A DNA stretch of 61,575 bases, the filler included, from Hausera hauseri (Eukaryota), in NCBI GenBank assembly GCA_046269625.1. It is 12 parts of 12 records of this genome, joined end to end, with 100 filler letters (N's around TTAATTAATTAA, not from the genome) between each part and the next. Parts side by side here need not be neighbours in the genome. Positions count along the whole stretch, not along the records: positions 24,969 to 31,982 come from JBJURY010043776.1; 11 more parts are not named here. One strand, written 5' to 3'. Made by a program: the position numbers and the translations under genes. The notes below the pieces were generated by a model. It was given only the letters and a program-made list of their open reading frames with translations. It had not been told where the DNA came from and did no database searches. Below are positions 13,234 to 45,849 of this stretch, in pieces; position 1 is the stretch's first letter, and every line of letters begins with the position of its first letter.

Positions 13234-14028
13234 TCATATAGAGTAATATCCGTAAGCTATACTTCGGTTTTTATCAACCCAGTGACGTTTGTCGTCGAAG
13301 GGATCTAGTGCTTTCTTTTCTGAGCTGATTGTTATGAGCTGGTGGTTTTTAGTACCAATTCGATCCTTGTCTACCATAGTGCTACAACCAGTTTCATAAG
13401 CATGTAGGTAGTTACTAAACTGCAAGTCTCTCTGCTTGAGATTGATACATTTGCATTTGAGGACTGGTTTAGTTAGGGTTTTGAGGGCATAAGATTTCTG
13501 CCGTAGGAAAACCGCCTCTTCATACTGAACACAGCCCTTGCTCTCATCATTAAATTTGCCAATTACAGAAGCAAAACAAGTAGTGTACAGCGGATCAGTC
13601 TTATCATAGTTTGATGTATCTAACTGTTCATTTGCTATCATTGCTGGTAAAAGTTGGGATTTTAAGTCCACACCACGGCATTCAATGAAGAAATTGTTAG
13701 TGTCACCAGCAACAATATTTAACTAACAATTAAACTGATGCTTGTATGTCTCCAACTCGATATAATTCAGCTCATACATCCGTAACTTAGGCAGACCAAG
13801 TGTGGCCTGACCGATGTATGAGGGCCTATCTAAGATGACTATGTCTGTATCGAGGAGAACTGCAACTAGATCATCGGCTATTATAATGCTCTCTTTAAAC
13901 TGGGCCTTAATAGCATATGTAACTAGTTTTTTAGGATTATTACACAGTCTAATGTTTGATCTATTTAGAAAATTCTCTACTGTTTTGCCATATAAGCTAT
14001 TGTTCTTAAGCTTAAAGAAGTCTTTTTC
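13234..14028 (-). pseudogene. Polinton pPolB C-terminal third (more divergent third lineage)
   Basis: KDFFKLKNNSLYGKTVEN (motif B), AGDTNNFF (decayed motif C), DTSNY, IGKFNDE, FLRQKSY, DDKRHW..IAYGY; one in-frame stop. Confidence 0.92.
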
Positions 14029-14128: not shown

Positions 14129-14999
14129 CTCGTCCATACCGTGCTGCCGGTGTAAATAATGTATGGCAAATGGATCTGATGGAAATGATTCCGTACATTA
14201 GCATCAACGATGGGTATCTGTGCATGCTGATATGTATTGATGTGTTTAGTCGTTTTGCACGTGCAATTGCTGTGAAATCTAAATCCGGTAAAAAAATTGC
14301 CGACGCTGTTCAGACAATGATACAACAAGAACAGCCGAAGCATTTACAAATGGATCTGGGTAAGGAATTCTACAACGCCCACGTTGCAGAGGTCTTGAAA
14401 CGGTTCGGCGTAAACCATTACTCGGTGTTTTTCCCATACAAGGCGGCATTCTTTGAACGATTTAATCGAACATTGAGCGGTCGCCTAAAGAAATTCTTTA
14501 CAAAGCAAGGCAACATACGCAGGGTAGATATACTGCCGAATATTATTCATACGTACAATCATTTGACACATTGTGGCATCAGTAGATTACGGCCGGTTGA
14601 CGTAATTGACGATTTGAACATGTGGCTTTATCAAAACCGAACCCAACTAGGATGACAGGCAATTAAACTCCCAAAATATAAAATCGGGGATTATGTACGT
14701 ATTTCAAAGCTGAGTAAGACACCATTTATTAAGAATTTCAATCAGAACTGGAGGTTTTCCGAATTTTAGCAATCAACACAAAACAAAGTCCGGTTATGTA
14801 CGTTTTAGAAGACGAAAATGGTGACGAAATACGTGGCTAATTTTACAAACAGGAACTGCAAGTACTACCGGAAAAACCTGATGTGTGTCGTATTCAGGAA
14901 ATTCTACGTTCACATGGCAAAGATTCGAATAAACAATATCTCGTCAAGTGGCACGGATACACTACACCAAGTTGGATTTTTGCATCGCAGATTGAGTGA
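14129..14999 (+). pseudogene. Polinton rve (c-)integrase with C-terminal chromodomain
   Basis: WQMDL, CIDVFSRFA, LQMDLGKEFYN, ERFNRTL (D,D-35-E core); KYKIGDYVRISK; FYKQELQ; QYLVKWHGY..SWI (chromodomain). Confidence 0.92.
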
Positions 15000-15910
15000 T
15001 GAGCACTTATTTGATACTTAATAGTAACAGATTGTTACAACATGACAACAACAATAACAATACCGCTGAACGGTTTACCATGGCGTTGTACTAGCCGCTC
15101 GACTTACGCCAGGGAGCCTGGGAAGTGGTTTTGGTGGAATTCACGTTTACATTTTCACCAATAACAATACGTGGGAACAGTGGAATATACTATACCCTAG
15201 TAAGACAATCTCCTGCATCTAGTCGTTTGCAGTTAGTCCGAGGCTCTAATGGAACATTTCACGTTCGCAATTACCAACGGCAATATTTCCCGGTTTCTAT
15301 TTTTCATTTAAACAATCGATTTGTGCTAAAACACAAACATCCGATTGAATTGCAATTCAAATCACTAGCCGACGCTCAGGCATGGGGTTTTCAATCATCT
15401 GCCAATGTGCGCTCGAAAGGTCTACAGCTCGGTGGACAGAGTATAATTAGTGAAAAATTGAACTTCTCCACTGCGAAAACCACCGATATTACAGTGAACT
15501 GGAAAAAGACTGAATCATTCTTTCACTCTCATACAAAAAGAACTGGTTTTCTTACGGAAACGGAAACAGAATTGTGCGCAACCATCAAGGTTGTAACTAA
15601 ATTGCTTCTCCAGACATTTGAATTAAACTGTGATGGTTGTATTTCGTTTACACTACATGATATTGTTATATATTTTGCCTTTGATGAACAATTGGAACGG
15701 AATCTGGGTTTCAAGAAACAAGAATTCGGACGAACCGGTGGCGGATGGCCCATTGTTGCTAAACACAAACCCCGTCTTTACGAAGCATTTCACTTAATCA
15801 ATATTTTAACAGATTGAACCGAACCCGTATATATTGGCGGAAACCGTAAACAACTATTGGCTTCTATTGGACTGGATTTGGACACGTACAAAGCACCGGG
15901 CGAAACTGCT
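14999..15910 (+). pseudogene. Polinton minor capsid protein (penton/PX)-like, 3' truncated
   Basis: ATG overlaps the integrase stop (TGATG); MSTYLILNSN..NNTAERFT..PLDL..WEVVLVEFTF N-terminal motif and INILTD.TEPVYIGG..QLLASI C-terminal motif. Confidence 0.75.
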
Positions 15911-16478
15911 TGTGGTGCCCACAGCGGTCGGTGCCCTTTGGCCCATTTGGTCGGGTACGGCCGGGCGTCCGTTGCCGCCACGTCAGGCCCATAGTCAGGC
16001 CCGATCTCCCACCTCATGAATCTATTTATAAAACACCTCTACCACTTTATAATACTGGAAATAGAAGTATATGACGATGATCACGGCACCGATATTGTAC
16101 CGGAAACAGAATCTGACTGTGATGATTCCATAACGAGTAGCATATGTGTGACAGATTACAATAACGATGTTTCCAACATTACCGGTTCAATGACAACAGT
16201 CAAACGACATCAAACCAGTTTACATCACATCCAGCAAACAGTTGGCAGGGCGATAATTTCGCTACTTTTTCTGTTAGTTATGATCCGAATAATTCATCAC
16301 AAAATCTGCGACCTGCCACGCGAATATTTTCTAACCCTCAGTCAGTTCAGTCGTCACAGCCGAATATGACGAGTTCCAGGTCAAATATTTGTCGAGATTT
16401 GTTGACGCATTCAAGCACTGTACAACGTCTCATATCGACTACTGCTATATTCGCATTACCAGTATCAACAACACCAAA
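15911..16478 (+). mobile_element. Probable Gypsy solo LTR separating the penton from the TBK1 fragment
   Basis: Starts TGTGGTGCC (same 9-mer as the LTR start at 44225) exactly where penton homology stops; ends CACCAAA (6/7 inverse match) exactly where kinase homology starts. Confidence 0.45.
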
Positions 16479-17700
16479 CACGTGGAAGATTCGCAAACAT
16501 TTCACACCCTATTCGGAACAGAAGAGTATCTGCATCCTGATATGTATATACAATATTTTGAGGGTATACCAAAAAATCACTGCCAATATGGATCTGTGGT
16601 CCATCGGAGTGACTCTGTACCATGCGGCAGTTGACCAACTACCATTCCTTCCCTTTAACTATTCCAGATCATCTGATAGATCAAAAGAATTCTTTGAAAT
16701 ATATGTATATAGTTAAAAAGCCTGGAGTTACTTGTGGTCGACAAATGTCTGATACTAAAAGTGATATACAATGAAGTACACAATTACCCGATTGTAAACT
16801 ATCACCAATGCTTAAAGAAATGACATCGTTGCTTCTTGGAAAGCACATGGAATACCTTAGCGCATATAATACATACGACAAATTTTTTGAAGAATCCAAC
16901 AAAATTTTGCAGAAAAAACATTGTTTGATGTTTAGTAGTCTTGACGGTCAATTACAAATGATGTATCTTGACTGTGTAACATTCAGCAATATTACCAATT
17001 AAGTTTCATGTCTAATTGGTTTAAACCGAGAAGATTTTATAATTCTCACAAGGAACAAACGCTTGGAACCTTTGGCTGACATTCACGCTGAGTGTATTAG
17101 ATCATATCCTGTGAAAGGTCTTTTGAAACATAAGCTAACGGATGATTCGATAATTGTCGTTCCGTGTAAACAGGTTGAACAGACGAAACCATTATTTATT
17201 CAACAAGCCAATAACAACTCTGAAGTACCGCCAACTTCCTTCCGAAATTTCAAAGTATCCAAAAAACATACTGAAGACGTAATGAAAGCCATTTACCAAG
17301 TGACAGGTGCTGCAGGTTACATCAATTGATAGATTGAGTGTCACAGAGAAACAGTAGTTTTTTTAATGAAAACGTCAAGATTGGATCACTTAAGACAATG
17401 AATACTTTGTTGACCTTTCAGATGAAAGACATCAAGGACTGCTGTCTTATGACAGATGCTTTAGTGAAAATAGCAAATCCTGCTCTGTGCAATTCTTATT
17501 GTAATCAAAACAGTCAAGAAAGTCTTTCAAAGTGTATGGACGAATTTGAACAACTGAGAAATGAGGCTAATAAAGGCGAAAAATATGGGGAACAATATTT
17601 TTGCAAAATTGTTGAAAGGCACGAAAATCGAGATTCGAAAATTGAAAATTCTGGAGATAAAAACTATTACCGAGTTAGCGAAGAATACATTGCTCCATGA
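16479..17700 (+). pseudogene. TBK1: TBK1/IKK-epsilon family kinase fragment (activation loop through ubiquitin-like and helical regions), intron-free, broken
   Basis: [16 protein letters not shown] and [19 protein letters not shown] are diagnostic of TBK1/IKKe ([33 protein letters not shown]); N-lobe and DFG absent. Confidence 0.85.
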
Positions 17701-18044
17701 TCAAATCAGCTGTCGATATCATTTGCTCTTGTTTTCTGATTCCATTTTTATTCGTATTGTTGTCACTGTTTATCTGATAACTTTTTGGGACACAATAGAT
17801 TTGTGCCATTTTAAATATATAAGAAATTTTGTTGTGTTGTAATTTTAATAAACAATATTTTTGGAAAAAAAAAGAAAAAAAAATTAAATTCTTCTTTAAC
17901 GTTGCACTGCTGGTAATGACGTATGTGACCCGCAACGTCACCAGGTGTACGCACCGTCTCTTTTGGCATTCTGATGACGTTATTCGCCTCATAATCACAA
18001 ATGAACTCTACTTTTATATCAATTCCGTGCTTGTTGAACATTTG

Positions 18045-19320
18045 GTCAGCAACCTTTTCTCCATGAACTTCATATTCACCATATTGTTTTACAATGCTTT
18101 GTGGCTTGTGCATGAACTGTTCATTAGTATCGAGTATTTTCAATTTCACACTTTTATCTTTGTTCTTGAATGCAAGTAAAATATCTTTCATTACATCTTC
18201 AATTGCATGGGTAAGTTCATGAGCCATTATCATTTCAAAAGATCCATATTTAAAAGACAAAGAACACTCGGTTCATAAATGGGAAATCGAATTATGGCTA
18301 CGGGAAAGAACAATTCATTCGATTCAGGAGCGTAAAACGCGTTTACCACATGTGGAATGAAAGTGGTGTCTAAAGTTGAATCCGAATTTAAGACCAATTT
18401 CATTTTTTTCTTGTAAAAGAATTCTTTGAATGTACTGTAGTTTTTGATAATGTTTCCTTGATAGATATCTTTTTAACTAGTTATCGATCACTTTTTGATT
18501 TAGAATATTTTCATCGTACCCAATTTTCTGATTGACTCTACTAATCATTTTGACTGTCATGTCTTTAATTTTCTCGTCAATCCACTTACTGACATTTATC
18601 TCGTGTCTCACATGGTCTTTGATATTCTTCAACATCAACTGAATCTGATTTATCAGCGAACTATTAAAAAATTTTTAACATAAATACTTCCAACTGGAAA
18701 AGAAGAACTCTTGATGTCAGATCAATGCAACCTTTCCAATTATCTTCAAAATTATTGAATCCGTGAATCATTTTTGCATCTTTATTCAGAAAGGTTATTC
18801 ATTTTTCAAAGGTTACTGCCGGAGAATCGATTAGACCCCATATTAAATCCAGATGAAGAATTCTTTTCCGTCCTTGTAAAAAATACTGATTGAGAATGTA
18901 GCATGTTCCATTTAGATGCGTTTAAGGCTGAACAATAGCAGTACTGCTATCTGAGAGTTGAGATCCACAATCTTTCAAAATATGATTAATGAGAGAAATC
19001 CTATTAATCTGAGGAAACAACTGCTGAACTCTTTATAAACTCATTTTCTTGTTCATCTGATATTGCAGATTGAGTGAAATGGAATTTTTTTCATAGTAAT
19101 ATGCCAAATTCATTTCCAATTCTATAATCTTGTTCAAAGTGGGCAGAATTGGCAAGTCAAACATGACAGATTTTGCGGTTTCTTTATTTGGTCTTTTGTA
19201 TTCAGTAACTCTGGCCATTGAATGCTTTTGTGAAATGCCTGTTTCAAAATTTTTGATTCAAGAATAAATTCACTTGGATCAATCTAAATCTTCAAATTGA
19301 AAAGATCTACATTCGACATA
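18045..19320 (-). pseudogene. Neprilysin/ECE (peptidase M13) fragment
   Basis: VVNAFYAPESNELFFPVAII..P..YGSFEMIMAHELTHA (VNAFY + HExxH) and IVKQYGEY; truncated before the ENIAD ligand motif. Confidence 0.85.
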
Positions 19321-20039
19321 AAATTGTTGACTGTAAAATTTCAAAAAATGGTTGAAATGCCAAAATGGTCGAAAAGGTAAATTCAAAAATCAAACTTAAA
19401 TCGCCAAAAAATTTTTTTATTAAAACTACAACACAACATTTTTTTGCATATTTAAANNNNNNNNNNNNNNNNNNNNNNNNNNNNNNNNNNNNNNNNNNNN
19501 TTAATTAATTAANNNNNNNNNNNNNNNNNNNNNNNNNNNNNNNNNNNNNNNNNNNNAAAGTATGGTAGTAATGAATGGGAGAAGAATAGTAATGTAAGAA
19601 GAATCCCCGAGTCGATTGTGATAAAGGGTGAAAGGACAGGAAGGTCAAGAAGTGCAAATACTCTTTGGTTGTTGAGAAACATGGAGGTGGAATAAATATT
19701 GGTCTGCCTTGCATGCGTGCAGCTAGTTCCAGTCTTGTTTGTTTCGTGGCTCCCCTTGAAACATAAGACGTCAATGAATGTTTTCCAACTGCATCGGTCC
19801 TGGGCAGGCCAGTTTAGTTCATTCTGGTCCTTACCTGTCTATATAAGGAGAGGGAATGCGGTAAGACCGGAAACAAGTCAACATGAGTTTGAAAAGAAAA
19901 ACAAAAAAGGGTTATAGAGTTTTACAAGTGGACAAGGTTACGACCAGGAGGTCTTCATCGGGTACAAGAGCATACAGGATGCGACGAACAGCTACAAGCA
20001 CAACTACACTGAGTAAGAAAAAAGAGAAAGAAAAGGTTG

Positions 20040-21990: not shown

Positions 21991-22210
21991 TTCTTGTTCT
22001 TGTTTGATCTCCACGTCATCGAGCGTCACCTCTTCTAGATGAGCAATGATAAAGGTTGTAGTCCTAAAAAGGACTATGGAGTACTGACATTGAGCTTGCC
22101 TGTTGTCCCGCTGGTGCCTAGGAGGGTGGACTGAGGTCCTCCAGGCATTAGTGCAATGTTGGCCTCCTAGAAATGATCGATCTCTCAACTGAGGACCATA
22201 TAGATGCTTC
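21991..22210 (-). repeat. Dispersed repeat copy 1, probable retroposon 3' end with CAA-rich tail
   Basis: Collinear with 22953-23190 (AAGGACTATGGAG..CTAGGAGG.TGGAC..AGGTCCTCCAGGC.TTAGTGCAATG.TTGGCCTCCTAGAA). Confidence 0.7.
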
Positions 22211-22952: not shown

Positions 22953-23190
22953 TGTTGTTGGTGTTGTTGTTGTTGGTCGATCGTCACATCACCCAGCGTC
23001 GGCTCTTGTGGGCGAGCCCTGAGAAGGGCTGTTGCAGTCATAAGAAGGACTATGGAGGAGGGTAGGAGAGCTTTCCTGCTGTCCCGGTAGTGTCTAGGAG
23101 GTGGACCAAGGTCCTCCAGGCTTTAGTGCAATGCTTGGCCTCCTAGAAGTGATGTACCACTCAACTTGGGATCATATCGAGCCTCTACCC
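22953..23190 (-). repeat. Dispersed repeat copy 2 with (CAA)n tail
   Basis: Homologous to 21991-22210; (TTG)n run at 22953-22975 on the plus strand. Confidence 0.7.
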
Positions 23191-24968: not shown

Positions 24969-26043
24969 ATACGATGTAACAACAAAAGAGGCGAAAAACT
25001 GCGATTTTGAACCCGGAGACTATACACAGTGTTGCGACATATACTATGGACACATTTACATCCTTACTTATCGACTATACTCACCACACTCATCGGAAGT
25101 CTATATCGAAGTAAACCCACAACTTCAGTTAGTTATTCCCGCTTGGATCACACGATTCGAAGTGAAATTCGACGAAATACTACAATCTACCGACCCACAT
25201 ATAAGGCTATTAGTTGAAAATATCAAATGGATCTCAATAAACTAGAAAAAACAATGCATCCAAGTAGATGCTCGAACATGATTAACTCTTAGTCAAAAAA
25301 TTAGCGTTGTTTTCGAAACAGTAAATGGAAAAACCCCGAAAGTAAAATACTGTTCTGTTCGTGATGGTGTAAAACACCTATGTTGTAAGCTACCAAATAA
25401 ACCAAGACTTCAAAATAAAATTTGACTTACATGAAGTACGACCGAATAAACCGAGCAAACAATTGCGAGCTTATTACCCAAAGAATAGAATATGGAGGAT
25501 TCCAATAGAAACGACAACCGAAAATCCGACTACTCGAGTTGGTGTCATTACGAAAACCGTTACATCAGGCAGTGTGCCTAAAAGGGAGTTCTAAAGTGTT
25601 CCCATTAAATATTCGACGCACCGATTTAGAATTATGTTCTTTGTGAAAGAAAAACTAATCAAATTGTAACATTACTTAAAAATACATACCAGACAGAATG
25701 CAATTTGTTAAAATCACAATCCGATTATATAATACAAGTATATGCAGAGGATAAAGAAAACCAAACGAGTACATTGCTCACATTAGATGAAGTTTGTACA
25801 GAATCGCACATATACAAAAGCATAGATAACAAAATTACAACTCCAGTCACCAAACAAGCACCAATGGGATTAACCACTTTACCGATCGTATCAATAGTCG
25901 TACTATAAACGCTTGTTCTCATCATATTAATTGCGATTTTTCGGTTAGTTACCAGAAATTATTATTCTAAGCGTCTTAAAACTACAGAATGGAAACTAAC
26001 GGAATTGGAAACCCCTCTTGATCTATATGATAAAATAACCTGA
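24969..26043 (+). pseudogene. Type I membrane protein with juxtamembrane FN3-like domain, T-rich stalk, TM helix and short tail
   Basis: TECNLLKSQSDYIIQVYAE (FN3-like L.P.T.Y.V.V.A), then LPIVSIVVL*TLVLIILIAIFRLV + RNYYSKRLK; stop at 26041-26043 followed by AATAAA at 26073. Confidence 0.55.
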
Positions 26044-26736
26044 CAACTACAGAGCAGATTATTCTATCATCAAATAAAGAATTGGTTCTATTTCAAGAGC
26101 ATTCTTTATTGTAAGAGTAATCTTTATTGTTTATTCTTCAGGTTTAAAAACAACTATATGGACGGACGACAGTATCGACGAACCGAGTAGGGAAAACGTT
26201 TCAAGACGCCGACGTACTATCGACGAATTCCTACAAAAATACACCGCCATACTTCTCCGAAATTCTAACTCCATTTTCCGGGAGATCCATAATGAATTAC
26301 ATGGAAAAGGTGCTGTAAAATACGACCAGGTCTACACAATTCCCAATAATCTAAAGGGTGTCACAGAAGAGAATAGGACTATCTATCTCTGTGCCATGAG
26401 GGAAGACAAGGACGCCAGGGCATACTCGCTCAGACAGTTGATAGACTATGATTTCGGTCGAAACATTTACATTTACCTAGCCGATGGTGAGATATACTAC
26501 CGATTCCTAGATCAAGAATGGGACATACATAACGGAAGGCAGTATAGATGTAGCATCCTCAGTTTACGAAGTGAAGATCTGCAGTCTTACGAATTGAAAT
26601 TTCGGGTAGTCGCTCTTCGTGTCAAGATAATGCTCGAAGTAACCTATGAGGAACAGTCCCATTTTCCATTACCGCCTTGAAGTTCCGGCAACAATCATCG
26701 GAGAACGAACTGGAAGGATCCATATACACGTATAGA

Positions 26737-27260
26737 ATGATGCCAAACACCCAGAATGTGAGGATCATAGCCATAAATTCTGGAGAGGGAAAGGACGCGG
26801 AGAAAATTCCGATGGAGATCTCAGTTCGAGAAACCAGTTGAGTAGAGACGTATCATACAATTATTAGTCCTAGGAAACGGATTAGAGAAACATACTACGA
26901 TTTAACTGGAATCCGTAAGGAAAACCTCCGAAGCGGAAAGAATATAAAACGTGTGCAAGTAGAATTGGAACATTGCCTATATGGACACATTCTTGTTGGG
27001 CATAGTATAGAGGAGACTATAACATTATAGGAAATACCCCACTCAAACCTCGCAGGGATAAGAGAACTCAGAACGCACCCAATTATCGCCGAACAAACAA
27101 AAAAATTGCTGCGAGAAAGGGACTACCCGATGCCAAAACTTATGGACGCCTACTTCAAACTAGTAATTGACACTATGAGTAATGGCTGCATCAAAGTCAG
27201 TAAGATGATAACGGCGAGCTAACGCACTTAATACCTTCGAGACATTTACGCAGGTTTAAA
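26737..27260 (+). pseudogene. ISG20/REX4-like DEDDh 3'-5' exonuclease domain (not in ORF track), C-terminal to an unknown domain starting about 26158
   Basis: IIAINSGE..EISV..YHTIISPRKRIRETYYDLTGIRKENL..KRVQVELEHCLYGHILVGHSIE..L*EIPH..IREL follows the REX4 pattern AIDCE..V.P..V.DY..SGI..L..VQ.E..GRILVGH.L; ExoI and ExoII Asp appear substituted. Confidence 0.75.
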
Positions 27261-28126
27261 ATGGGACCACGAATGGACTCCTAATAACCCGGAACACAAC
27301 CTACGTAGTCTTCCAAACCCAGAAGGAGTAGATCGCAAATATCGGAAACAATACTGTTTGGCTTATTGAGCCAAATAACTCCGAATTAACTATATTGAAG
27401 ACCATTCAGAAGCCAATCACAGATGGATTACCAGACACCAGCTGTAGAAGGGCTGAAACAATGGCCAAATAAGAAACCGGAACTGAAACATTCAAAATTT
27501 CCTTGATTCCAAAGAAAAAGCAAAAAGTTAAAATCCTGGCCCAAGTGTCGAAGAAGAAAACCTCCCTTTATGACTATCTATTCAAAGGGACCTACAAAGC
27601 AACAATCTCAGTTCAAATAGACCAAAACAAAAAATGGATAATGCAGAAAACTATGAAAGAAGGAAGAAGATCAACCAAAAATAGCCAATCAACTTACAAT
27701 CCGAACTATAGAAAAATCAAGGAATGCAATATTCTGAGCCCAGAACCCAGAGGATGAACTCAAGCAAATTACTGAAATGAATATATTAAGGAATAGGCAT
27801 ACACAGGGAGATACACATTTCATAACGACTAAAGACCAACCGAAAATGTTGGTAACCACTGAACATTCTAGCCGCGAAAAAATCAAGGAGGCAGTGTTTT
27901 ACCTTAGAACCACATCGCCTAGAGAAGTGTACGAAAACACATACATCTGGGAGAATCCCAAACTACGGAAATATGTTGCGCCAGTTTTCCAATATAAAAG
28001 AAATGGTAAGATGACAGTACCCGTGGACAAACAGATAAAAACAGTACTAAAAAAGCAATGCCATCAATATCTAAAACAAGGAAAAATTCCTGATCTGGAT
28101 CACGAAAGTTTGCAGACTGGACCATA

Positions 28127-28444
28127 GTGACAATAAGTTGTGACCCCAGAAGAATCTCCGTAGACCCCAAGCAAAAGAGGATTTATGAATATTTGTACCA
28201 GGATAAGGATGATTTGGTATTCGAGCAAATCGAGCTCGTAATAAGAGGAGATCTAGACGACGAGAAATGGGAGAAGGAAGAATATGAATGTCCCATGTGT
28301 GAGGCAGACCTTCATCAAGGATTCGTCATTGTAGATAATTGCGATTGCAGACACAAATACTGTCGAGACTGTTTGGAAAAGTGGACCGTAGAAAACGGCA
28401 AAAACTACAGACCCAGTATGTTAGGTAGAGGCAACCGACCTTAA
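28127..28444 (+). pseudogene. C3HC4 RING finger protein, end of a broken ORF starting about 27500
   Basis: CPMC-x13-CDCRHKYCRDCLEKW, with a final PVC in a shifted frame near 28413-28421. Confidence 0.75.
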
Positions 28445-28641
28445 GTATTTTTCAAACGGAAGCTATACCCGTGTAGTCCGAATAAGACCGCACCATAGTT
28501 ACGAATTAGAGACAAATTTCCGGGCGAACCAGCCAAATACCGACCCAGGAGCGGGTTTTCGACGACGCATCAATTTATTGAGATAACCACAAAGTGGCGT
28601 CACCTCTCCTGACGCAATAGGCACATCCGAGGATGCCGCTT

Positions 28642-29153
28642 AGGGAGGAGAAATGTTGTGAGAAAGGGACTAGTGCGACAGCTGAGTTGCAAATAATTGT
28701 ACAAGAAGTGGATTTAATGCAACCACTGCAGTATCAAATATATTGAGGCGATTAATTAAAAGCGTATAGAAGAAATTGAATGTATATATATGTTGGTTAA
28801 AACGAGGAAATAAAATTGTAAATAAATGGTGGATACTCTGGAAAATAATAGTAAAGAGACAAATAAAAGAATAATAAAAGGGCTGACTGTAGAAGTAGAA
28901 ACATATATACGGAGACGTTGGAGAAGGGATAGATAAATTTTTCAGAGAAGAAGCTGATCTTATTTTCGAACTGACTAACATTCTGAATCGTGATTATTGA
29001 CTCTACTGCATTGAACCTCTATAGCGTTAGTGTTGTAATTTGTTTATTATTAAAGTTTCTCGTTGTATTGTTAAATTTTCTATATAGTTTTCCGCCGCTC
29101 CTTAAGAGTAGTTTAAGCATACCCTAAGGGTTAAACTTCTGTGTAAAATCACA
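28642..29153 (+). mobile_element. Polypurine tract and probable 3' LTR
   Basis: AGGGAGGAGAAA (28642-28653) immediately followed by TGTTGTG (28654); AATAAA signals inside; candidate end ATCACA at 29153 is uncertain. Confidence 0.55.
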
Positions 29154-29344
29154 TAGATAAGGCGAGAATATTGTTAAACGTTTTGCACAGGACCACAATC
29201 GAGTACCAGTATTACTGATTAAACTATCTGTTATAAGGTAAAATTTGTCTATTCGATAACGATAGACCTTACATGCATTAAGTTACTCAAATCCCAAGTG
29301 TAATTATTGTTATATAGCGGGAGATTGCATAAGGGTAACCCCAA

Positions 29345-29645
29345 TATGTAACATTTCTTTTGGTGCTCCGGATTTGAGGATCCATTTCTTTTCTATCGCT
29401 GCTTTGATGGTGACTTTGTCTTGCCTCGGTATAGTAGTTAGTGTTACGTATCTGCTATACTGATCTATCATTGCTAAAATATATCCTTTTTTCTCCAAGC
29501 TTCCTTCATTGGCCCACAGATATCTATGTATACTTTTCGAATGGCTCGTTTGCTGATAGGTTCACTGTTTCTTCCTTCGTGCTCGTCGTCAAGGTTTTGC
29601 TTCGCTGACAAGCTTCGCATTGTCGAACTACTTCCTGGACTGTGT
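29345..29645 (-). pseudogene. Gypsy integrase fragment
   Basis: VVRQCEACQRSK..EPFEKVYIDICGP..YILAMIDQYSRY..WILKSGAPKEM. Confidence 0.85.
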
Positions 29646-30284
29646 CAGAAATCAAAAATTTTAGAGCTTTCAAAAATCATTTAAGTACGAAATTTACCAA
29701 GTTTAGTTTGAATGTAATTTCTAAAGAAAGAATAAACAGCTGCCACATGTAGGAAGATTAGTTAACAATATTGCTTTGATCAGAAATTTAATTAAAACTC
29801 CCATACATTTGTACTTGAATGCTCAAATCGCTAGAATTCTTGAACAAAAATCTTGGAATTCTAAATTCCTCTGACTTCACTACAAAAAATCGATCAACTT
29901 GTTTTTCAAACCTATTCTCAAAACTTTATTCAATAACTTTCAAACTAAATTGTTCGAAAAACTGATTTATAATCAGCAATTTGTACCAATCTGCATTGTT
30001 GATGTAACTTGCATTAACAATGTAAATGATTAATAATACGTACATGATTAATATTATGATATTTAGAAATTATTATCAATTTAAGGTATTTCTCATGGGT
30101 GTTTATTTGTGATACACATCTTATTTTCAAATAGACATTAATTAATTAATGTGAAATAAAATATTAATATTCACTTCTAAATTTCTTTCTTAATATGTGA
30201 TTGTTTTTGTCATTGCAATTTTTGTACAGATTATTTATACGCTATTTCCAGTGGTCAGTGCCATAACATTTTGACCATTTCATA

Positions 30285-31290
30285 ACAGAATGACAACCAT
30301 ACAGCTGAACGGTTTACCACGGACTTGAACTAACCACTCGAACTACGCACGGGAACCTTGGAAGTGACTCTGACGGACTTCACATTTACATTTTCACCAA
30401 AATCAATACGTGAGAAAATCGGTATTTATTTACCCGACTAGAAAATACCCTGTTTCAATCCGTTTAAAGTTAATCCGAGACTCAAACAAATATATTATCC
30501 GAAATTATTTGCAATACAATTTCTCGGTTTATGCTTATTTTCCAAACTGCAGTATGAAACTAAAGCATCGCATCCCATGGAATTGCAGTTTAAAACCATG
30601 GATGATGCTCAGGCATGGGGTATTCAATCAGTCAATGTACGCTCGAAAGTCTACGCCTAGGTGAACATGTTATAATTAGTGAAAAATTGAACCTATCGTT
30701 TAATGTGACAACCACTGTTGTAGTGAACTGGATTAGGTCAGATCAGTCTTTCGATTGTACATTGTGCCATATGACTTATTTATGGAAAGGGAACCGGAAT
30801 TGTGCGAATACGTCAAGAAAACGGCTACATTAGCCGTAAAGACATGCGAAATAAACGCAGATGGTCATATTTCGATTATACTACATAACAATGTTACATA
30901 TTTTGCCTTTGATGAATTATTGGCTCAGAATCTGGGGTTTAAGAAACGAGAATTCTATCAAACCATTGTTGGACAATCTATTGTTTCCAAATACAAATCA
31001 CCACTCTGGAGAATTTCATAGAATCAATATTTTAACGGACTTAACCGAATCCGTACTCGTGGTTGGATAACGTAAACAACTACTGGCTTCTATCGAACTG
31101 CATTCTGGCAAGTACAAAACATCGGGTGAAACTGTTCGCGTTAATATGCTCATACCCATGCACTTATAATTTTCTCGCATTATTGTACAGTATTTCCGTG
31201 TATATGCTTGATGAATTTTGGGAGCCAATTAAATTTCTATTTGGGTCAACGACACATTTGACGTTACATTTTTGACGTCGTCGTCGATAA
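30285..31290 (+). pseudogene. Polinton minor capsid-like gene, homolog of 14999-15910
   Basis: DNA collinear with 15060-15910 (WEVTLTDFTFTFSP; YFAFDE.L..NLGFKK.EF; INILTDLTE..RKQLLASI); retains the C-terminus MLDEFWEPIKF..THLTLHF. Confidence 0.75.
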
Positions 31291-31335
31291 TAAACAAACT
31301 GCTTCATCACTATCATCATCATCATCATCGAGATC

Positions 31336-31982
31336 ATGAGTATTTACATGATGTTACTGAGCAACAGTTGTCCGACAACTCGTCTAAACAATTCAGCCAG
31401 TGAATATGTTGTAGATTGGAACAATCCTTTGGATTTATCTGGAAAATGGGAAGTTGCACTAACGGAATGTAACTTCCCCTACGTACCGGGGATATTGAAA
31501 GGTAGTATGAAAATAGTGTACAACAAGACTGTTACTGAAACCAAAACATATTCTTATCCTCTGACACTTACTGACAATAAAATAACATTTGGATAATCGG
31601 CCATTTGCACGACCAGTACAAATTACGGTTTATACGGCAAGATCGGTGTTTTTATTTTAGGGGGAAACTTACATTTTATAGCAGATTTTGAATTTACTGT
31701 TAACTTTGCGTCATCTGAGATGGCGCAAAAATTTAGAATCAAAAATGCAGAGTACAAAGGTAAATATATTAGAAGCGAATATGCAGTTGCTCCAAGATTA
31801 AGTCTCGTATATTACTAGACAACGGTGAAATTTACCTATACAGCATAAATGGTGTCAACGTCATACGTATCGATTGGGGACAATGTCTATTGCGAGTCTG
31901 TAGCATATCTCTGTTAACACTTCTTCAAATCAAAAGTACAAGGAGATATTTAAAGTTTTCGAGTCATCAAACCGATTTTGAT
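31336..31982 (+). pseudogene. Second, tandem minor capsid-like gene
   Basis: MSIYMMLLSNSCPTTRLNNSASEYVVDWNNPLDLSGKWEVALTECNFP, the penton N-terminal motif (SN..N..S.F..P..L.G.WEVAL.E). Confidence 0.8.
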
Positions 31983-34400: not shown

Positions 34401-35228
34401 GTAGTTTGATCGTTTTGGTTGCTACCGTTACGGAGGAAAACAGACAGAACTTGAAAACTTGGAACAAATTACTGATTTTACGTCCTCCTACTATTATGAA
34501 ATATTGAGTTACATTTAGGAAAAATGAACTGTTTTTTCTTTGAATTTGCCAACGAAATTAAGATTTTGTCATTAGTTCGATCTTTAAGTCGAAAGTCGCC
34601 AATTAGTGAGACTGAAAAAAAGCAGTTTGGTCAGTTTTTCAACTCGGGAGAAAATGCATTTGATAAGTGCTGTTTAGTTTCAAAGCGTTTGCCGTTTCAA
34701 TCTCTATCAATCGACGATTCAATCCACATTTTAATCCAAGAAATGACTCCGTCGAGTGTCTTAACATGGTTCAATATATACAACTTACTGAATAAGCTGA
34801 AATACGTTCAAAAGAACGTACTTAATAAGGATATAATTAGAGAAAAAACAGTCAAAATCTAATTTCCAACTATTCCTATGACTGTGACTTCCCAAATAAG
34901 TCCAGACAATTGATTTTCTATGGGGATATGTACAATTATTGTTCAACGTGGTTTAACAGTACTGTACAGTCTGTCATGACTATTCTTGATCAGATCGTCG
35001 TAATAAATATGTTCATTGATATTATGAAAGCATTCCTCAGAGATATTGTAATAGCTGAACAGAAGATTTACACAATCCAGGTGATAAAGCAATGGATTGC
35101 GAAGGTTACAGCCAATGAGCACCGCAATTCTCGAGCGAAGTTAATCGCATGGCAAGATGAATTGGACATGTATTTACAGCGATTGTGGGTATTGGAAGTG
35201 TCGTACAAGAACAATTTTTTAGAAGAAT

Positions 35229-36044
35229 ATGATGACATGCATGACTAGTCACCCTCCATTGTTTCTGAAAATGATTGTCGAACAGTCGAATGGGTTACCT
35301 AGCGATAGATTTGGTAATGTATTCAATACAGTATTTCAAATCATGGACATAACCAGCATCAGTCAAATCGTATTCTGCACAAGCTTTATTAAGGCTATCC
35401 TTAAATTAGACAATACCCATAACGGAGATTTATCCATGTCCATGGACCAAGACTCGATACTCGGCAACAGTATCTTAGACTCATCTGCAGAAGATGTTAA
35501 GAGTTCATCTAACGAAGAAATCAGTTTGACGTGTTCGCTGTTACTCATGTCCGACACCGATGTCAAACAGGTCGCCAGCAAATTATTTCAATTCGCTAGT
35601 GAAAATTGCCTAACAATGAGTCAGCTAAATACTTTATTCCAACTGTTATTTCAGAGTTTCGTACCATGCGAGAACAGTACGGCGGACACAGTTTGCAACA
35701 GTCACTATTACACGAGATTCCTCATTTATGAACAATTAGCCTCATTGAACATTTTGAACACGCAATTATTTTGTGATCTATTCTCATTTTTACATCCATA
35801 TCTCGAGAATGTACACCTAACAAAACCTGTTCAAATAGTCTACAAAAGTACAAGCAATTTGACATTTCTAGTGTGGCATGATTTCCCAGAATTGCTCATC
35901 ATTTACCATGCGTTATTATGTCAAATTTTACTTTGTCAGTTATCGACGACAGCAATCATTGAAACGAAAGAAATCATCAGAGATTTAAAGAATGGCATCA
36001 AAAAGGTCAGTCAATCTGTCATACTTATGTTATGCATATATTAA
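35229..36044 (+). pseudogene. CNOT1: ORF containing a CNOT1 C-terminal (NOT module) segment at about 35750-35935
   Basis: FLHPYLENVHLTKPVQIVYKST..LVWHDFPELL..YH..C vs CNOT1 [36 protein letters not shown]..C; the rest of the ORF is unassigned. Confidence 0.65.
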
Positions 36045-36479: not shown

Positions 36480-38072
36480 TTGCTAGGTGGATCTTATCCA
36501 AAAACTTCCTTTAATGACCAATAAGATTTTGTCGACATCCCTACTATAAGTGTACCCTTAAATTCACCTCTACCTCCGTCGTCTACTGTAAATCTACCTT
36601 GCATAGAATACTTCGTCGACAATCAACACTCCAGCAGGACGTGGTTGGACTTTCATGCGGCTTGGCTGAAGTCAAATAATATTGTCGGCTCGTTTCTTAA
36701 AGCAAACAGCTTGCTGATACTTCTGCCTTGCAACATTAAGTCGCAGCTTCCCAACTTGTCGGAAAAGTTTCAAAGCAGTGACCCATATAAAACACGTTTT
36801 AGCTCAACTTTGAAAATCACGGAACCATCTCTGGATAACATCATCCATAAATATTTAACGACAACACCATAGACACGTTGAAACCCTCCTAATTTCTCCA
36901 AACCTCATTAACTCAATTGAGTACTCTTGGCGTTAATCAAGCAAATAACGCCGATTTACTACGCAGGTATTTTCTGCAGTCTTTCCACAATGACATACGT
37001 GCGCTGCTGACCATAGTAGAGGACACATTACTACTACAAAAACTAGCACAACTGGCTGATAAAAGCTACGAGATACTACATGCACATACGGCCGCATTAG
37101 TAGTCGCTACACTACAAGCACCAACAACTCAACAAGCTAGCGATATAGCTAATTTGAACTCACAGATAAATTCTTTACGGGCTGAAAACACGGCAATACA
37201 CCAAGCCCTTTCTGCTTTAACTTCTAAATTGGACAATTTATCCATGCCGCGACGATATTGATTCACACCCGGTCATAGCCGTGCTTCATCGCAAAATTCG
37301 AGGTCCGCTATGTCCCTACTCGACATATGGTGTGCTATTATCACACTAAATTCAAGGACCAATCCAACAAATGTTGCTTGGGATGTACATTCTTTACACC
37401 AGCTTTTCAAAAATCCGACATCGTTTGTATTTACCATAATAGGTTCAGCAATAAAGCCCGAAACTGCATCAACGGTTGCATTTTTTCTAGTCGACAACCA
37501 ATTCCATCGTAATTCTCCAGACTCCCCAAATCCGACTATCCAAAAAAACTGACAAAGCCGCCAAATATTTCGGCACATGCTGGCAGAGGCATACGTCTTC
37601 AATCTAACTGCCGTACCTACGCTGTTTTTACATTAAAGGGCTCCTTAACATCCAAACCCAATCAACCAATCCACTTCCTCATTGACTCAGGGGCTGCTGT
37701 TTCTTTGTTACCACCATCCATCAAAACAACATCAATCTCACCATCTAACATTAAATTATACACAGCTAACGGCCAAGCTTTACGCATTTTCGGCACGTCT
37801 AAAGTTTCATTTACTTTACTACCATTTTCCGACATTTTCAATTGGGCATTCAATCTCCAATACTTGGATCTGATTTCTTATCTTTCTACAACCTCCTTGT
37901 AGATTGTAGATAACGTCGGATCATCAAAAGCAGTTCAACGAAACCGACCTCTACAAATAACCAACCGATCATGCAACCTATATCGCCCATAAAATCGATA
38001 TTAAAAGAACCATCAGCCAACGCAAATAAGAACGTCATTAATACCAATATAAATAATCCAACGTTTTTGTTG
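36480..38072 (+). mobile_element. Ty3/Gypsy gag-protease region
   Basis: Gag LLRRYFLQSF..IRALL..LAQLADK; two CxYHxxF..C..GCxF motifs; AAAAAAAC-TGA at the gag end (37542-37552); protease FLIDSGAAVSLLP; collinear with 51403-52700. Confidence 0.85.
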
Positions 38073-38423
38073 NNNNNNNNNNNNNNNNNNNNNNNNNNNN
38101 NNNNNNNNNNNNNNNNTTAATTAATTAANNNNNNNNNNNNNNNNNNNNNNNNNNNNNNNNNNNNNNNNNNNNCTAAGATCAATAAATAAATAAATATTTT
38201 GTTTTCTATAACAAGGTTAGTGTTTTACTTTTACTTCTATCTTACTTAATAATAATAGGTTAAGTAACAAATCGAAAAGAAAACTCAAAAGACACTGAAC
38301 AAAATACGTTATTGAAATATACATCAAAACAATATACAACAGACAATTGTCAATGATTGTCACAGTAACTGAACTGAACTGATTTATCTAAACCGACAGA
38401 GTACCGATTGCTTGGACGTACGT

Positions 38424-41400
38424 TTATTTCAGCCGCCAATGTTCATACGACTAACTCTTATTTCGCCTCACCCACTTTCGCTTATCATTGTTACATGATA
38501 AAGCGACTTTTGCACTGGTAATTGTGTACATCTCATGTTCAATTGATCGGATGATCGGTTGAGACACAACAGCCACTGTTTGTCATCCTTCTGCCGCTTC
38601 TTCATATATACGGCGATAATCACCGTGGTCTATTTCCGTCTGTCTCAGCTGGACTCCTTTTTCCCGCATTTTCGGTCCACAGTCTGTCAGGAAACTGTAG
38701 CATTTTGGGCGTAAGAATATCCATTCTCGATATTGAACCCTGCCTTCACTTTTATCCTTAAAGCAGCCGATTTTGTTTGTGATCGCGCTGTTGTACAACG
38801 GATGATCTGGTGCGTAGTTGGACGTATCCAGTAATCTATATGACTGCATTTGCTGCAGTAGCTGTTGGCAATTGACTTTTTTCACCCGCAGAAAAAAACT
38901 GTCTGTGTCACCGCCAATTATACTTATGTCACAGCCGTCAAACATTTTCCGGTAACGTGCCAAATCGCGATACTGTTGCTCATAAATCCGAAACTTGTTC
39001 AGGTTCAATACCACTTGTCCGATGTAACTTGGCCGGTCCAGAACGACTTCTTTTCTGTTTAACAGCACCGCAACCAATTCATGGGCAATGTTCATTGACC
39101 GCCGAAACTGTGTTTTGTTGGTACACGTAACCAGCTGCTTTTCACTGTTGCATAGGCGAACATTAAATCGCTTTTTCAGATTTTTCACTGTTTTTCCGTA
39201 CAGGAAATTGTTTTGCAGCTTGTAATATTCTTTTTCGAACTTTATGCTAGTTGCGGCTCGTTTCTCCGAATTTCCATCTGTGTGCGCCTTGAATATGGGA
39301 GCCTGAGCAAATCAGATTACACGATGTAGCTGTGATGCGTACACCGAGTTGCATGTAGAACTGTAGCAGACGACAACGGACAACGTAATTCAACTTCGGT
39401 TGATGCATCATAAGCAGTTTCTACACTTTTGAGCCTGGCGGACATTGGTTAAATGGTGCGACCGGTAAATCATCCAAAACGTCATGCAGCTCATCTGGTT
39501 CCACGAAATCGACCTCTATCGGGTATCCGACTGAGCCTGCCATGTCTGCTCGTGGTTGGATGACAATTATGCCGTCCAAATCTTGTCTGTCGACTACCCA
39601 TTTAAATGAATTGTACGCAAGGATTGCGAAAGCGCCCAGCCATACAGGTTATTAATATCAATATACAGCAGTGATGCAGTATCGGTATCACTGACCTGGT
39701 GCTTGTTGACAAATGTCATGCCGCCGCGAATACCAGCATCAAACATTCGGTACATTTCCGGATCTTGCAGCAGCTCAATGTCTCGATCCAGCGACATTAG
39801 AGCTGATGCCCAAGTCATTCCCGGTATGGAATAAAAATTGAGTGGCTCCAACCTATCTTCCGCCAGCGCTTTAGTTCGAAGTGCTTCGAATACGTCGGTT
39901 AATAAATACACGTCCAGTTTAAGATACTGGAGCATGTAATTCAACATGTTTCTACATCCCAGTTCAATCCAAGATACTTGTGCTCTGATATTCATCTTAT
40001 GCGATACCTGTTTATCACGGCGGTAATTTCTCTGCTATCCGGAGTCGCCCATATGATGTTGCAAAGTCATATGGAAATATTCCGTTGCTGCGTGCAATAT
40101 GCGTGGGGAACTGCGTTGAGGTTATCGGCACATCTGGCAAGGAATTTACCACCTTCGCCAGTGATTCATTGAGAAATTGCAATGAATCAAGGAAGCGTAC
40201 CTGGAATCGGTTTACTCGTGCACGACAGCGATAGATATTTTTCCATTGTCGTTGGGATTATGGACAGTTCCCAGTGCGGAAAGCCGTTAATGGCCAATTT
40301 GAGAATATGTGACAGTCATAATCTCGGAAATTATGAAAGATCACCGGCAGGAATGGTTGCACGCGCCTTGCTAAATTATATGAATTGCATGCTGCTCCCA
40401 CGTATCGACCGGTGAAATGACCTTGATCCGGTAGGAGTCGTTCTTGTGCATCAAACAGTATTATTTTGTGCACAGATAGCATTCATCGGTGATAGCGAAA
40501 ATCAATGGTTGATATTCGTCTGCCCATAATGAATGGCTTATTGCAATTGTTGCGATATCACGGCGCGATTTCCGTTTACTATGGTTTCCAACTGCTGCAG
40601 GAAATCATGTACACAGTTCCAACCATGGAAAACGTAATACTGCGGTTGTCAGGCGGCTTTTATTGGTACTAGCAACATACCGACGGCAATTGGAGAGTGC
40701 TTTTGATCGTATACATTGTGCCGTGGTAGAATTGCTTCGATATCAGCATACACCACATATGCCAGACTATCCGTTTTTTACCAGTCACTGAATCTCAACT
40801 CCTTTTTGACTGGCATAACATACATTGTGGTTCCTGACAAAGTTTACCTGCACAGCGCCACATGCTTTTCCCATGTCTCATTTGATCAGAATCCATGCAG
40901 ACACACGGTGCACCATTTGCACCGTATACGCTTTTTGATGGACTGGTCATGATCCATTTTCAATAATCTGTCCAAATTGGTCAAGGCCGTGTAATAAAAC
41001 TTTTCTTCATTCTCCAACAGCAACAAATTTATTGGGCGTCCAATTAGATTTCGATGCGGTAAATTATGTCCACGTGAGGATTCTTGTAAATTTACTCATC
41101 CACCGGTATCTCTACGATTGTGTTGAACCGGAACACGTTGATTGCCAGTGTCTGATTACGCCGTTCAAAAGCCAGAATAGTTTTGAGTTTCATCGACATC
41201 TAACACTCGTTGTAGTCTAATTCTGAGAAATACTTACTGTACTGCTTTGGACAATTTGCATTATGTCGGGACACTTGATTATATTTCAATATGGCCAGAA
41301 TGCTGTAAATAATGCAGTATTCGTCGTTAGTATTTTGTAAATTCACTACCTCCAGAGACTGCATCAAGGATGCAGGTGTCAGTATGAATGAACGTCCAGA

Positions 41401-42321: not shown

Positions 42322-42473
42322 TTCTGAATGATAAACAAATTAAAGTAAATGTTAAACTAGAAACAAATGAAAANNNNNNNNNNNNNNNNNNNNNNNNNNN
42401 NNNNNNNNNNNNNNNNNTTAATTAATTAANNNNNNNNNNNNNNNNNNNNNNNNNNNNNNNNNNNNNNNNNNNN

Positions 42474-44403: not shown

Positions 44404-44869
44404 TATCACCTCTCCGCTGATTAAAGTGCATTGGCCATAAAATGCTGCTCATAGAATATTTTAAAAAAATTGTGTACATACATTACTATAAAGAAACTAA
44501 CTCAATCTTTAGCACAATTATAACAGCCGTCTACTAAATTGTCAGCAAAAGGTTGTTAACAAATTTTCTTGACCTTACGAAATCATGGTAAACCTTCTGA
44601 CTCGTGAAAACTTCGTGGAGTGTACCCAGCTTATATCAACAGGAGAATGACATTTGTGACATCATGTTGTGATATTGTAATTTTTATTTGTAAATATGAT
44701 GTAAAAAATTGATTAATTGAATTGATAATTTTTTTTAATTTTAAAACTTAAAAATAAAGCTTATCCGAAGCTACTTGTTGGATTTATTGTTTCGTCACAT
44801 TACTTATCGTTATTTTGGATATATTTTAAGTCAGTTCTACCAAATTGGTGTCAGAATATTCGAAACCAT

Positions 44870-45790: not shown

Positions 45791-45849
45791 TACAAAATAT
45801 GGCACTTTACTACGATACTCATCTTTACCATTTTATTTACAGTCGAATC

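Follow-up and report, generated by a model that had tools for sequence, protein, structure and literature searches.

A probable LTR-retroelement 3' end in Hausera hauseri with a membrane-protein gene and a gene for a predicted exonuclease-fold/RING fusion protein

The question that this locus raises is what kind of element places a membrane-protein gene together with nuclease- and RING-like coding sequence directly in front of a polypurine tract, and whether the encoded proteins are active enzymes. The window, i.e. the whole stretch of 61,575 nucleotides that was analysed, consists of 12 short contigs with N spacers between them, and the contig carrying the cassette begins at 24969, inside the membrane-protein gene (ORF-A). 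As an earlier note had described, the coding sequence lies on a single strand and is free of introns up to the purine tract; it occupies the plus strand from 24970 to 28661 and is A-rich there (A about 0.33-0.46). The three coding units of that note are real as coding sequence, but units 2 and 3 form one reading frame that frameshifts and stops have interrupted (ORF-B), and two genes instead of three lie ahead of the tract. We consider the cassette to be probably the decayed 3' accessory region of an LTR retroelement; the host of the element is likely an animal and the element likely retrovirus-like. The full reading that we prefer, with a probability of roughly 0.55, is a multi-copy, decayed LTR-retroelement 3' end with a membrane gene and a gene for a predicted non-catalytic RNA-binding adaptor and RING ubiquitin ligase. 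The features are as follows.

24970..26043 (+): ORF-A, single-pass membrane-protein gene, from translations; 5' end cut by the contig start
25550..25812 (+): FN3-like segment of ORF-A, weak and split by a frame change (PF10179 Fn(III), E 0.052)
25885..25950 (+): transmembrane helix of ORF-A (Kyte-Doolittle 3.27 over 19 residues)
26115..26141 (+): predicted splice acceptor ahead of ORF-B, T-rich tract plus CAG, by sequence ranking
26142..28661 (+): ORF-B, accessory gene of about 840 codons, broken here, from tblastn with P0010; ends across the PPT/LTR junction
26219..26677 (+): N-domain of ORF-B, beta-rich, without a metal-binding His motif, from a model of P0010
26750..27240 (+): ISG20/REX4-like DEDDh fold without catalytic carboxylates (putative pseudo-exonuclease), from sequence, profile and model
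27800..28285 (+): conserved pre-RING domain of unknown fold (30-49% identity to P0010 aa 600-745)
28289..28421 (+): C3HC4 RING finger by Pfam, frameshifted near its end in the window copy
28642..28653 (+): polypurine tract, read within the last codons of ORF-B, from the tract plus TGT and the C-terminal end of P0010
28654..29353 (+): probable 3' LTR of 700 bp, TGTT...AACA, from its termini and the junction with an integrase
29354..29660 (-): fragment of a different, very high-copy Gypsy-type integrase (rve E 2e-4, Integrase_H2C2 E 0.004, in separate frames)

The single-gene structure of ORF-B was deduced from its intact relative P0010 (870 aa, E 1.5e-35), which carries in one reading frame all the domains of ORF-B, in the order N-domain, pseudo-exonuclease (ISG20/REX4-like), basic linker, unknown domain, C3HC4 RING and tail. 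P0010 is colinear with 26219-28658; in tblastn its residues 58-870 aligned in five colinear blocks with 30-49% identity (E 3e-77 and 2e-57), and this colinearity across units 2 and 3 rules out the three-gene reading. The junction of N-domain and exonuclease in P0010 and the window recurs in another homologue, P0011. The search for relatives gave 11 matches, and P0010 and P0011, both included in these, were the only ORF-B homologues among 1.84 billion representatives; P0014 and P0019 (without an RNase_T match) and P0012 (a four-repeat protein) were left out of the alignments. In word-index protein searches P0010 matched only itself among 5902, and the exonuclease piece matched none of 243 candidates among longer proteins, whereby these blanks are weak because the exonuclease-piece search also missed P0010. 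Locus scans of viral, metagenome and prokaryote-genome sequences yielded no relatives with flanking sequence, and Rfam gave 0 matches.

The RING finger named in the earlier note was recovered with PF00097, at 21.1 bits in the window and at 30.8 bits in P0010 (cut-off 21), where aa 747-790 present a complete eight-ligand C3HC4 pattern. The best PDB sequence matches of the P0010 RING are E3 ligases, and besides all eight ligands it carries a Trp that is typical of E2-binding RINGs. Judged from these sequence features, the product of ORF-B is likely a RING ubiquitin ligase that marks host proteins for destruction. The exonuclease and RING ligase cargo that had been proposed is present with both domains, yet in one protein and not in two. 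For the pre-RING domain there is no Pfam family, and its model has a pLDDT below 50. The linker of P0010 contains the basic cluster KKRRK, and the linker of the window copy the clusters KKKQK and KKKT. Scored by its pyrimidines and Ts, the predicted splice acceptor between ORF-A and ORF-B is the best of 255 AG sites (24991-28653), and it sits in the most T-rich 60 nt of that segment. This acceptor would also suit another reading of the same LTR element, namely that ORF-B is an export or packaging scaffold like Rev or like CERV of the C. elegans element Cer1, with a RING that is structural (oligomerisation or zinc) and no ligase directed at host defence; an env-position, probably spliced and nuclear-looking protein with dead enzyme folds would resemble CERV as it is described (PMC10309623). 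Since the P0010 RING retains its eight ligands and the Trp, and since its best PDB sequence matches are E3 ligases, we regard this reading as unlikely.

ORF-A comprises a Cys-containing ectodomain, the FN3-like segment, the transmembrane helix and a short tail, and its frame is interrupted both by frameshifts and by stops, with 4 of the latter among 355 in-frame codons. The one strong transmembrane segment agrees with the single-pass membrane protein proposed earlier, while its FN3-like character is weak: the Fn(III) match, located on the C-terminal half and below the cut-off, was the only Pfam family listed at E<=10, no FN3 match was obtained among PDB sequences, and the FN3 strand pattern is one that we presume by eye. 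None of 1156 candidates of 196-625 aa was a homologue of ORF-A in the word-index protein search, and no fusion-glycoprotein Pfam family was found on the ORF-A pieces, whose 5' part is missing from the contig. Copies of ORF-A are present on 25-60 distinct X1 contigs at each listed site.

At 28642-28653 the sequence reads AGGGAGGAGAAA and continues with TGTTG, in line with the purine tract and TGT of the earlier note. When the 3.7-kb segment was shuffled 1000 times, a tract of at least 12 purines, at least 6 of them G, followed by TGT arose in 2.1% of cases; such a tract occurs twice in the whole window and is expected about 8e-5 times per given 30-nt slot. ORF-B and P0010 share the C-terminal residues GGEML, encoded in the window by the purine tract and LTR start; these last five residues are identical, although the P0010 tail is otherwise only about 41% identical, and both frames stop there. 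The probable LTR has a CA end and a short terminal inverted repeat. The region of the earlier note stops at 29153, where an alternative terminus (TCACA) is found, but 29353 is more probable as the LTR end: there the sequence ends in AACA, the position coincides with a sharp break in a Gypsy integrase, and 41 X1 records that match the integrase side cease matching. The integrase fragment is probably the insertion target and lies outside the element.

No second LTR copy was found in the other 11 contigs of the window. In run X1, which may be the source of the window itself, the copies that had been sought were found as pieces 83-91% identical over ORF-B, the RING-to-PPT stretch and the LTR, among them a 301-bp copy (about 90% identical) over 28753-29055; the element is dispersed as diverged copies. 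The multi-copy state, the five residues shared with P0010 and the stop of the TGTT...AACA segment at the integrase junction together support the LTR-element 3' end that had been proposed. On the contig, which begins inside ORF-A, no PBS, gag, pol, second LTR or target-site duplication was seen. Gag-pol and the 5' LTR are not visible because the contig begins inside the membrane gene, and as the window is made of joined short contigs, the lack of gag and pol upstream is uninformative.

On the same contig, 900 bp downstream, there are Polinton-type genes, and others occur on further contigs of the window. The cassette might therefore belong to other mobile or viral DNA, be it Polinton/adintovirus cargo, an endogenised DNA virus or a non-autonomous repeat, with the tract and TGT as a coding coincidence; besides the Polinton-type genes, the contig without gag-pol and the purine tract that doubles as coding sequence would fit this. 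However, between the cassette and these Polinton-type genes lie the fragment of a Gypsy integrase and 550 bp of DNA with low depth. The last five residues, identical in two frames that end at the same place, and the low expectation for tract and TGT also speak against it. We therefore hold such an origin to be rather improbable and retain the LTR element.

The middle domain of ORF-B shows a DEDDh-type fold by sequence (PDB 2p1j, E 7e-5) and a profile match to REX4/ISG20-like proteins (prob 97.6, E 4e-12). The structural model compares with ISG20 (Z 12.5, rmsd 5.3, 124 aligned) and with the PolC exonuclease (Z 10.7, rmsd 2.6, 102 aligned), and Foldseek returned ISG20L2 (E 5e-7); this fold match is partly circular, because the alignment behind the model contained REX4-like rows, but the fold is also backed by the 2p1j and profile matches from sequence alone. 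The Atlas gave RNase_T clusters at 0.87-0.89 for P0010 55-445, to be taken as leads only, and the sole match in PHROGs was a DNA-polymerase exonuclease family. The catalytic positions present a different picture. ExoI reads AINTG, AVNLA and AINSG in the three homologues, compared to A[LM]DCE in REX4-like proteins, so that the D-x-E carboxylates are missing in 3 of 3 (N-T-G, N-L-A, N-S-G) with the first Asp changed to Asn. The ExoII Asp is replaced by Met or Thr in both sequences that cover the site, and at ExoIII, where the alignment is not unequivocal and the pLDDT of the model drops below 50 after aa 366, no HxxxxD is evident. P0004, P0010 and P0011 have no Pfam match to RNase_T, in contrast to 6 of the 9 other search matches. 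From its sequence the exonuclease of ORF-B looks dead, and an active nuclease was rejected on the missing ExoI carboxylates and ExoII Asp. The DEDDh exonuclease of the earlier note is thereby correct as a fold and not as a catalytic site, and its nuclease as a possible counter-defence enzyme is unsupported because the catalytic residues are missing in all checkable homologues. An active 3'-5' exonuclease with a rearranged active site would be in keeping with the clearly ISG20/REX4-like fold, with one Asn and a nearby Glu that are invariant across the three homologues, and with the DEDDy ORF3s of rotifer LTR elements, whose residues are described as intact (PMC5408684); against the losses at ExoI and ExoII and the missing RNase_T matches we judge it very unlikely. 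Because the catalytic residues are missing from the fold of an RNA-trimming enzyme, ORF-B likely grips RNA instead of cutting it.

That the units are processed pseudogenes of ordinary host genes, adjacent by chance, is most improbable and already largely refuted: the window does hold several host-gene retrocopies (RPN2, CNOT1, TBC, HlyIII family), but no named or clustered cellular orthologue of ORF-B was found, its two homologues being unnamed singletons, there are many diverged copies, and two lineages have a frame that terminates at the PPT/TG junction.

The N-domain is possibly derived from an AlkB/2OG-Fe(II) oxygenase, as suggested by the P0010 model, for which 18 of the 19 non-exonuclease rows within the top 50 were 2OG oxygenases (Z 6.1-7.0, rmsd 4.0-5.5, 133-147 aligned); viral capsid jelly-roll rows were set aside due to very high rmsd. 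A low-confidence model of the window's own N-domain (mean pLDDT 38.9, best Z 3.2) did not reproduce the match to the double-stranded beta-helix fold of AlkB, and a profile comparison with 7 bacterial AlkB proteins gave a probability of 0.07, with 168 of 200 shuffles equally good. Having failed these two checks, the model-based AlkB assignment is a lead. The H-x-D...H iron ligands and R-x5-R were not found, with the E. coli AlkB ligand positions placed by eye on the strands of the model, and the three-sequence alignment of the N-domain contains no invariant His. The Atlas gave no usable match for the domain.

Retroviral accessory proteins such as Vif, Vpu and Rev serve host antagonism and RNA export, and to our knowledge very few accessory proteins of invertebrate LTR elements have been characterised. 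We infer an RNA-binding role, E3 activity and host targets for ORF-B in the following way. ORF-B would be translated from a spliced subgenomic RNA with the acceptor at 26141, and the basic linker would bring it into the nucleus. There the element's RNA may be held by the dead nuclease fold, perhaps together with an AlkB-like fold that is dead too, while the RING would ubiquitylate host RNA-silencing, decay or retention factors assembled on it, so that full-length element RNA survives and is exported. The env position would be taken by ORF-A, as a surface or adhesion protein that is not fusogenic. A precedent is CERV, which occupies the env position without being an Env protein; it is described as large, nuclear and made by splicing, contains a pseudo-GTPase as its dead enzyme fold, and is needed for genomic RNA export (PMC10309623). 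A further-reaching version, which we consider doubtful, would be an undescribed lineage of large animal LTR elements with an FN3-type surface protein for env and two dead RNA enzymes of host origin (AlkB-like and ISG20-like) fused to a RING, forming an RNA-guided, possibly modification-reading E3 that destroys host silencing factors on the RNA of the element.

Extra 3' genes as such are already known from LTR elements (rotifer DEDDy ORF3, Cer1 CERV, orchid AlkB). For the domain fusion predicted in ORF-B we found no report in open-access main texts; within this scope, the combination is as unfamiliar among described families as the earlier note had stated. Errantiviruses, animal Ty3/Gypsy elements with an F-type or gB-type env, likewise have a membrane-protein gene 3' of pol, but ORF-A, as far as its 5'-truncated sequence goes, has no match to a fusion-glycoprotein family, and the words fibronectin, exonuclease, AlkB and RING do not occur in the main text of the errantivirus survey (PMC13524379). 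The giant Gypsy elements Burro/GYPSM1 of planarians resemble the present case as animal LTR elements with ubiquitin-system and host-interaction domains (RING-type AIR1, MATH, BIR, ankyrin); they differ in that these are described inside a gag-env-pol polyprotein and not in a 3' gene, and no exonuclease is listed for Burro (PMC6431247). Ty3/Gypsy elements of Phalaenopsis carry an ALKBH5-like ORF, which is reported to keep HxD...H and to demethylate m6A in vitro; if the N-domain assignment holds, both would be LTR elements with an AlkB-type domain, whereas in ORF-B the fold assignment is a lead, there is no invariant His, and the domain forms one protein with an exonuclease fold and a RING (PMC9289625). 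By structure and by profile, the middle domain is matched best by human ISG20 and ISG20L2 and by REX4-like RNase_T (PF00929) exonucleases; unlike them it is without the catalytic DEDDh residues and is embedded in an 870-aa RING protein (P0010). The bdelloid rotifer elements Juno and Vesta encode as ORF3 an RNase D-like DEDDy exonuclease whose invariant residues (DEED) are reported to be intact and which has no TM; here the fold is ISG20/REX4-like, without the carboxylates, and fused to a RING, a word absent from the main text on Juno and Vesta, and two further domains (PMC5408684). The closest functional model for ORF-B is CERV, compared by description and not by sequence, which has H, M and G domains, no RING finger described and no adjacent membrane gene (PMC10309623). 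The fusion of a putatively dead nuclease and a RING, retained between lineages only about 40% identical and ending exactly on the PPT/LTR junction, provides a concrete candidate for a ubiquitin ligase that is encoded by an element and directed against RNA defence. With P0010 there is an intact natural homologue whose domains can be tested singly for nuclease, ligase and RNA-binding activity. The fusion would add another case to the pattern of LTR elements retaining catalytically dead enzyme folds.

The accessory region sits on the contig at 24969-31982, one of 12 contigs of 4-7 kb that are joined by N spacers in the window and do not represent one locus. Since the region starts at the first base of its contig, the lack of gag and pol upstream, to which the earlier note had drawn attention, is uninformative and says nothing either way. 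The plus strand of 24970-28661 is A-rich and shows one stop-poor frame in nearly every 300-nt stretch, whereby the frames are interrupted by stops and frameshifts. We regard it as a real, decayed accessory region of a probable animal LTR retroelement, and the LTR-element reading alone is given a probability of about 0.83. The following features are referred to:

24970-26043, plus strand: ORF-A, membrane-protein gene with one strong hydrophobic helix
25885-25950, plus strand: hydrophobic helix of ORF-A, located by hydropathy
28642-28653, plus strand: purine tract, followed by TGTTG

ORF-A had been described as an FN3-like membrane protein. The strong helix agrees with the membrane part, whereas the FN3 signal consists of a single Pfam Fn(III) match below threshold (E 0.052) and a pattern judged by eye, and no FN3 match was found for ORF-A in a PDB sequence search.

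An exhaustive protein search with the exonuclease piece yielded 11 matches at E<=0.001 among 1.84 billion entries. Two of these are true family members, namely the intact P0010 (870 aa, E 1.5e-35) and P0011 (333 aa, E 1e-19), unnamed singletons on ENA contigs of 16,242 and 12,445 bp, respectively; the remaining nine comprise seven RNase_T proteins and two without an RNase_T match. P0010 is colinear with 26219-28658 in five blocks of 30-49% identity, with about 100 linker codons aligning poorly. Thus, the exonuclease and RING units, previously taken as separate, are one gene, ORF-B, with the order N-domain, exonuclease fold, basic linker, unknown domain, RING and tail. The RING of P0010 is a complete C3HC4, and the nearest PDB sequences are E3 ligases. 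P0010 and ORF-B both end in GGEML, the codons of which are made up in the window by the purine tract and the first LTR bases, with the stop at 28659-28661. Apart from the identical terminal residues the tails are ~41% identical, and the best explanation of this terminal identity, judging from the sequences, is that the PPT/LTR junction has been conserved in the P0010 relative. Among 255 AG sites, the T-rich CAG at 26141 is the top-ranked one and would be the predicted acceptor for a subgenomic RNA of ORF-B.

In the full mechanism, to which we give slightly better than even odds, ORF-B would be spliced and nuclear, would hold the RNA of the element via dead nucleic-acid-enzyme folds and would ubiquitylate host silencing, decay or retention factors, and ORF-A would be the surface protein in the env slot. 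Its established parts are the architecture, the catalytic-residue loss, the RING, the repeat nature and the junctions. The main rival is that ORF-B is an export scaffold like CERV, the env-position protein of the C. elegans Cer1 element, which is described as containing a pseudo-GTPase (PMC10309623).

The middle domain of ORF-B has an ISG20/REX4-like fold, both from sequence and from the P0010 model (pLDDT 77-93 over aa 241-340), for which Foldseek gave ISG20L2 and ISG20 as top matches and the VIA structure comparison gave ISG20 at Z 12.5. As the alignment of the model included REX4-like rows, the sequence tests are the independent evidence for the fold. That ORF-B is an active nuclease, as the earlier label of a DEDDh exonuclease implies, is a less likely alternative: the fold stands, but the ExoI DxE is substituted in all three homologues and the ExoII Asp in both of two, and ExoIII has no confident placement. 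The losses also occur in the intact P0010 and are therefore not decay of the window copy; the nuclease of ORF-B looks dead. P0012, on a Logan contig of 4990 bp, is an 804-aa protein consisting of four RNase_T exonuclease domains in tandem, in some of which the ExoI motif is altered, and giant-virus exonucleases of similar length were among the structure matches.

For the N-domain, aa 52-213 of the P0010 model were covered by 19 of the VIA top 50 rows, and 18 of the 19 were 2OG-Fe(II) oxygenases, a few of whose family labels are our assumption. They comprised P4H (Z 7.0), ALKBH5 (6.9), ALKBH6 and ALKBH1 (6.8 each), as well as ALKBH3 and FTO, with 133-147 residues aligned, whereby Z < 8 can reflect a common arrangement. 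The alignment of the model was without any AlkB sequence, and on visual inspection the order of the strands corresponds to that of E. coli AlkB. However, pLDDT reaches only 45-74 between aa 110 and 200, the model of the window's own N-domain is poor (38.9; no match above Z 3.2), an N-domain profile scored against 7 bacterial AlkB proteins no better than shuffles (168/200 as good), and the N-domain of the homologues has no invariant His. The odds that it is an AlkB-derived dead domain are about even.

The reported purine tract followed by TGT was confirmed; when the segment was shuffled 1000 times, a tract of this kind plus TGT came up in 2.1% of cases. That the cassette is non-LTR cargo is less likely. 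The probable LTR following the tract starts with TGTT. At 29353, 41 records of the public run X1 matching the downstream side cease to match; the upstream side terminates in TGTAACA, and downstream lies a Gypsy integrase fragment on the minus strand. It therefore seems moderately probable that a 700-bp TGTT...AACA LTR ending at 29353 was inserted in another element. The end proposed earlier, 29153 (TCACA), is somewhat less probable; in that case, 29154-29353 would be a repeat of its own. The stretch is present in two public runs, and X1 may be the source of the window DNA. Contigs of both runs were matched to it at 80% likeness; summed depth does not equal copy number. ORF-A is matched by 25-60 distinct X1 contigs at the sites listed, and pieces of 300-570 bp with 83-91% identity cover ORF-B, the RING-to-PPT stretch and the LTR. 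The region is thus repeated rather than single-copy, and host pseudogenes are a less likely explanation. X1 depth spikes at 28479-28712 (21231), a bin including the PPT and the LTR start, and at 25905-26138 (9211), compared to 15-840 in neighbouring bins, which suggests short motifs common to far more abundant repeats.

Gypsy gag-pol pieces are found on the remaining contigs, together with Polinton-type genes for polymerase and integrase and with eukaryotic host-gene retrocopies. Fragments of ordinary Gypsy gag, protease, RT, RNase H and integrase lie on four of these contigs (36525-37900, 42657-44040, 46633-47205, 51405-55663), from which no connection to the 24969-31982 contig could be drawn. 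Intron-less host-gene fragments, several adjoining mobile-element sequence, occur at 16165-17700, 35223-36041, 44745-45473, 45774-46109, 48996-49637 and 60861-61157 (kinase, CNOT1, proteasome RPN2, HlyIII/PAQR protein, TBC domain and a histone H2A-like piece). The H2A label is our assumption, as is the TBK1 label of the kinase fragment, which presumably resembles animal TBK1/IKKe by motif (Pkinase only E 0.015); judging from this resemblance, the host is probably an animal. Decayed family-B DNA polymerase copies, which we take from motifs to be of Polinton type, were found at 1-4241, 38173-42373, 13237-14028 and 50199-50765, the first two, large ones sharing ~75-88% identity. Two tandem genes with very high X1 depth (30290-31134, 31327-31900) presumably resemble, by motif and without Pfam match, the Polinton/adintovirus minor capsid (penton) protein; the former has 71% identity to the gene behind an rve integrase (14131-15908, contig 14129-19456). 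A short ~130-bp repeat in two diverged copies (22070-22200, 23040-23170) resembles a SINE or LINE tail. A second strand-biased, intron-free cassette lies on the minus strand of 4342-8855. Three or more membrane proteins are predicted in it, of which two are paralogues (39% identity across 140 aa, E 5e-27), and an ankyrin-repeat gene comes next. One membrane protein has a short motif in common with the FN3-like half of ORF-A (11/1000 shuffles as good), and the other three comparisons were not significant. This cassette is possibly carried by a large, related element.

That LTR elements can carry additional 3' genes is established. Rotifer LTR elements carry DEDDy exonucleases (PMC5408684), orchid LTR elements an active ALKBH5-like ORF (PMC9289625), the C. 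elegans element the above CERV (PMC10309623), and Burro elements RING, BIR and ankyrin motifs (PMC6431247). In the main text of a metazoan errantivirus survey, the words fibronectin, exonuclease, AlkB and RING are absent (PMC13524379). No report of a pseudo-exonuclease/RING fusion was found in the main texts of the open-access literature. The fusion beside an FN3-like membrane gene is a combination not found in print within that scope; the slot and each of the parts have precedents.
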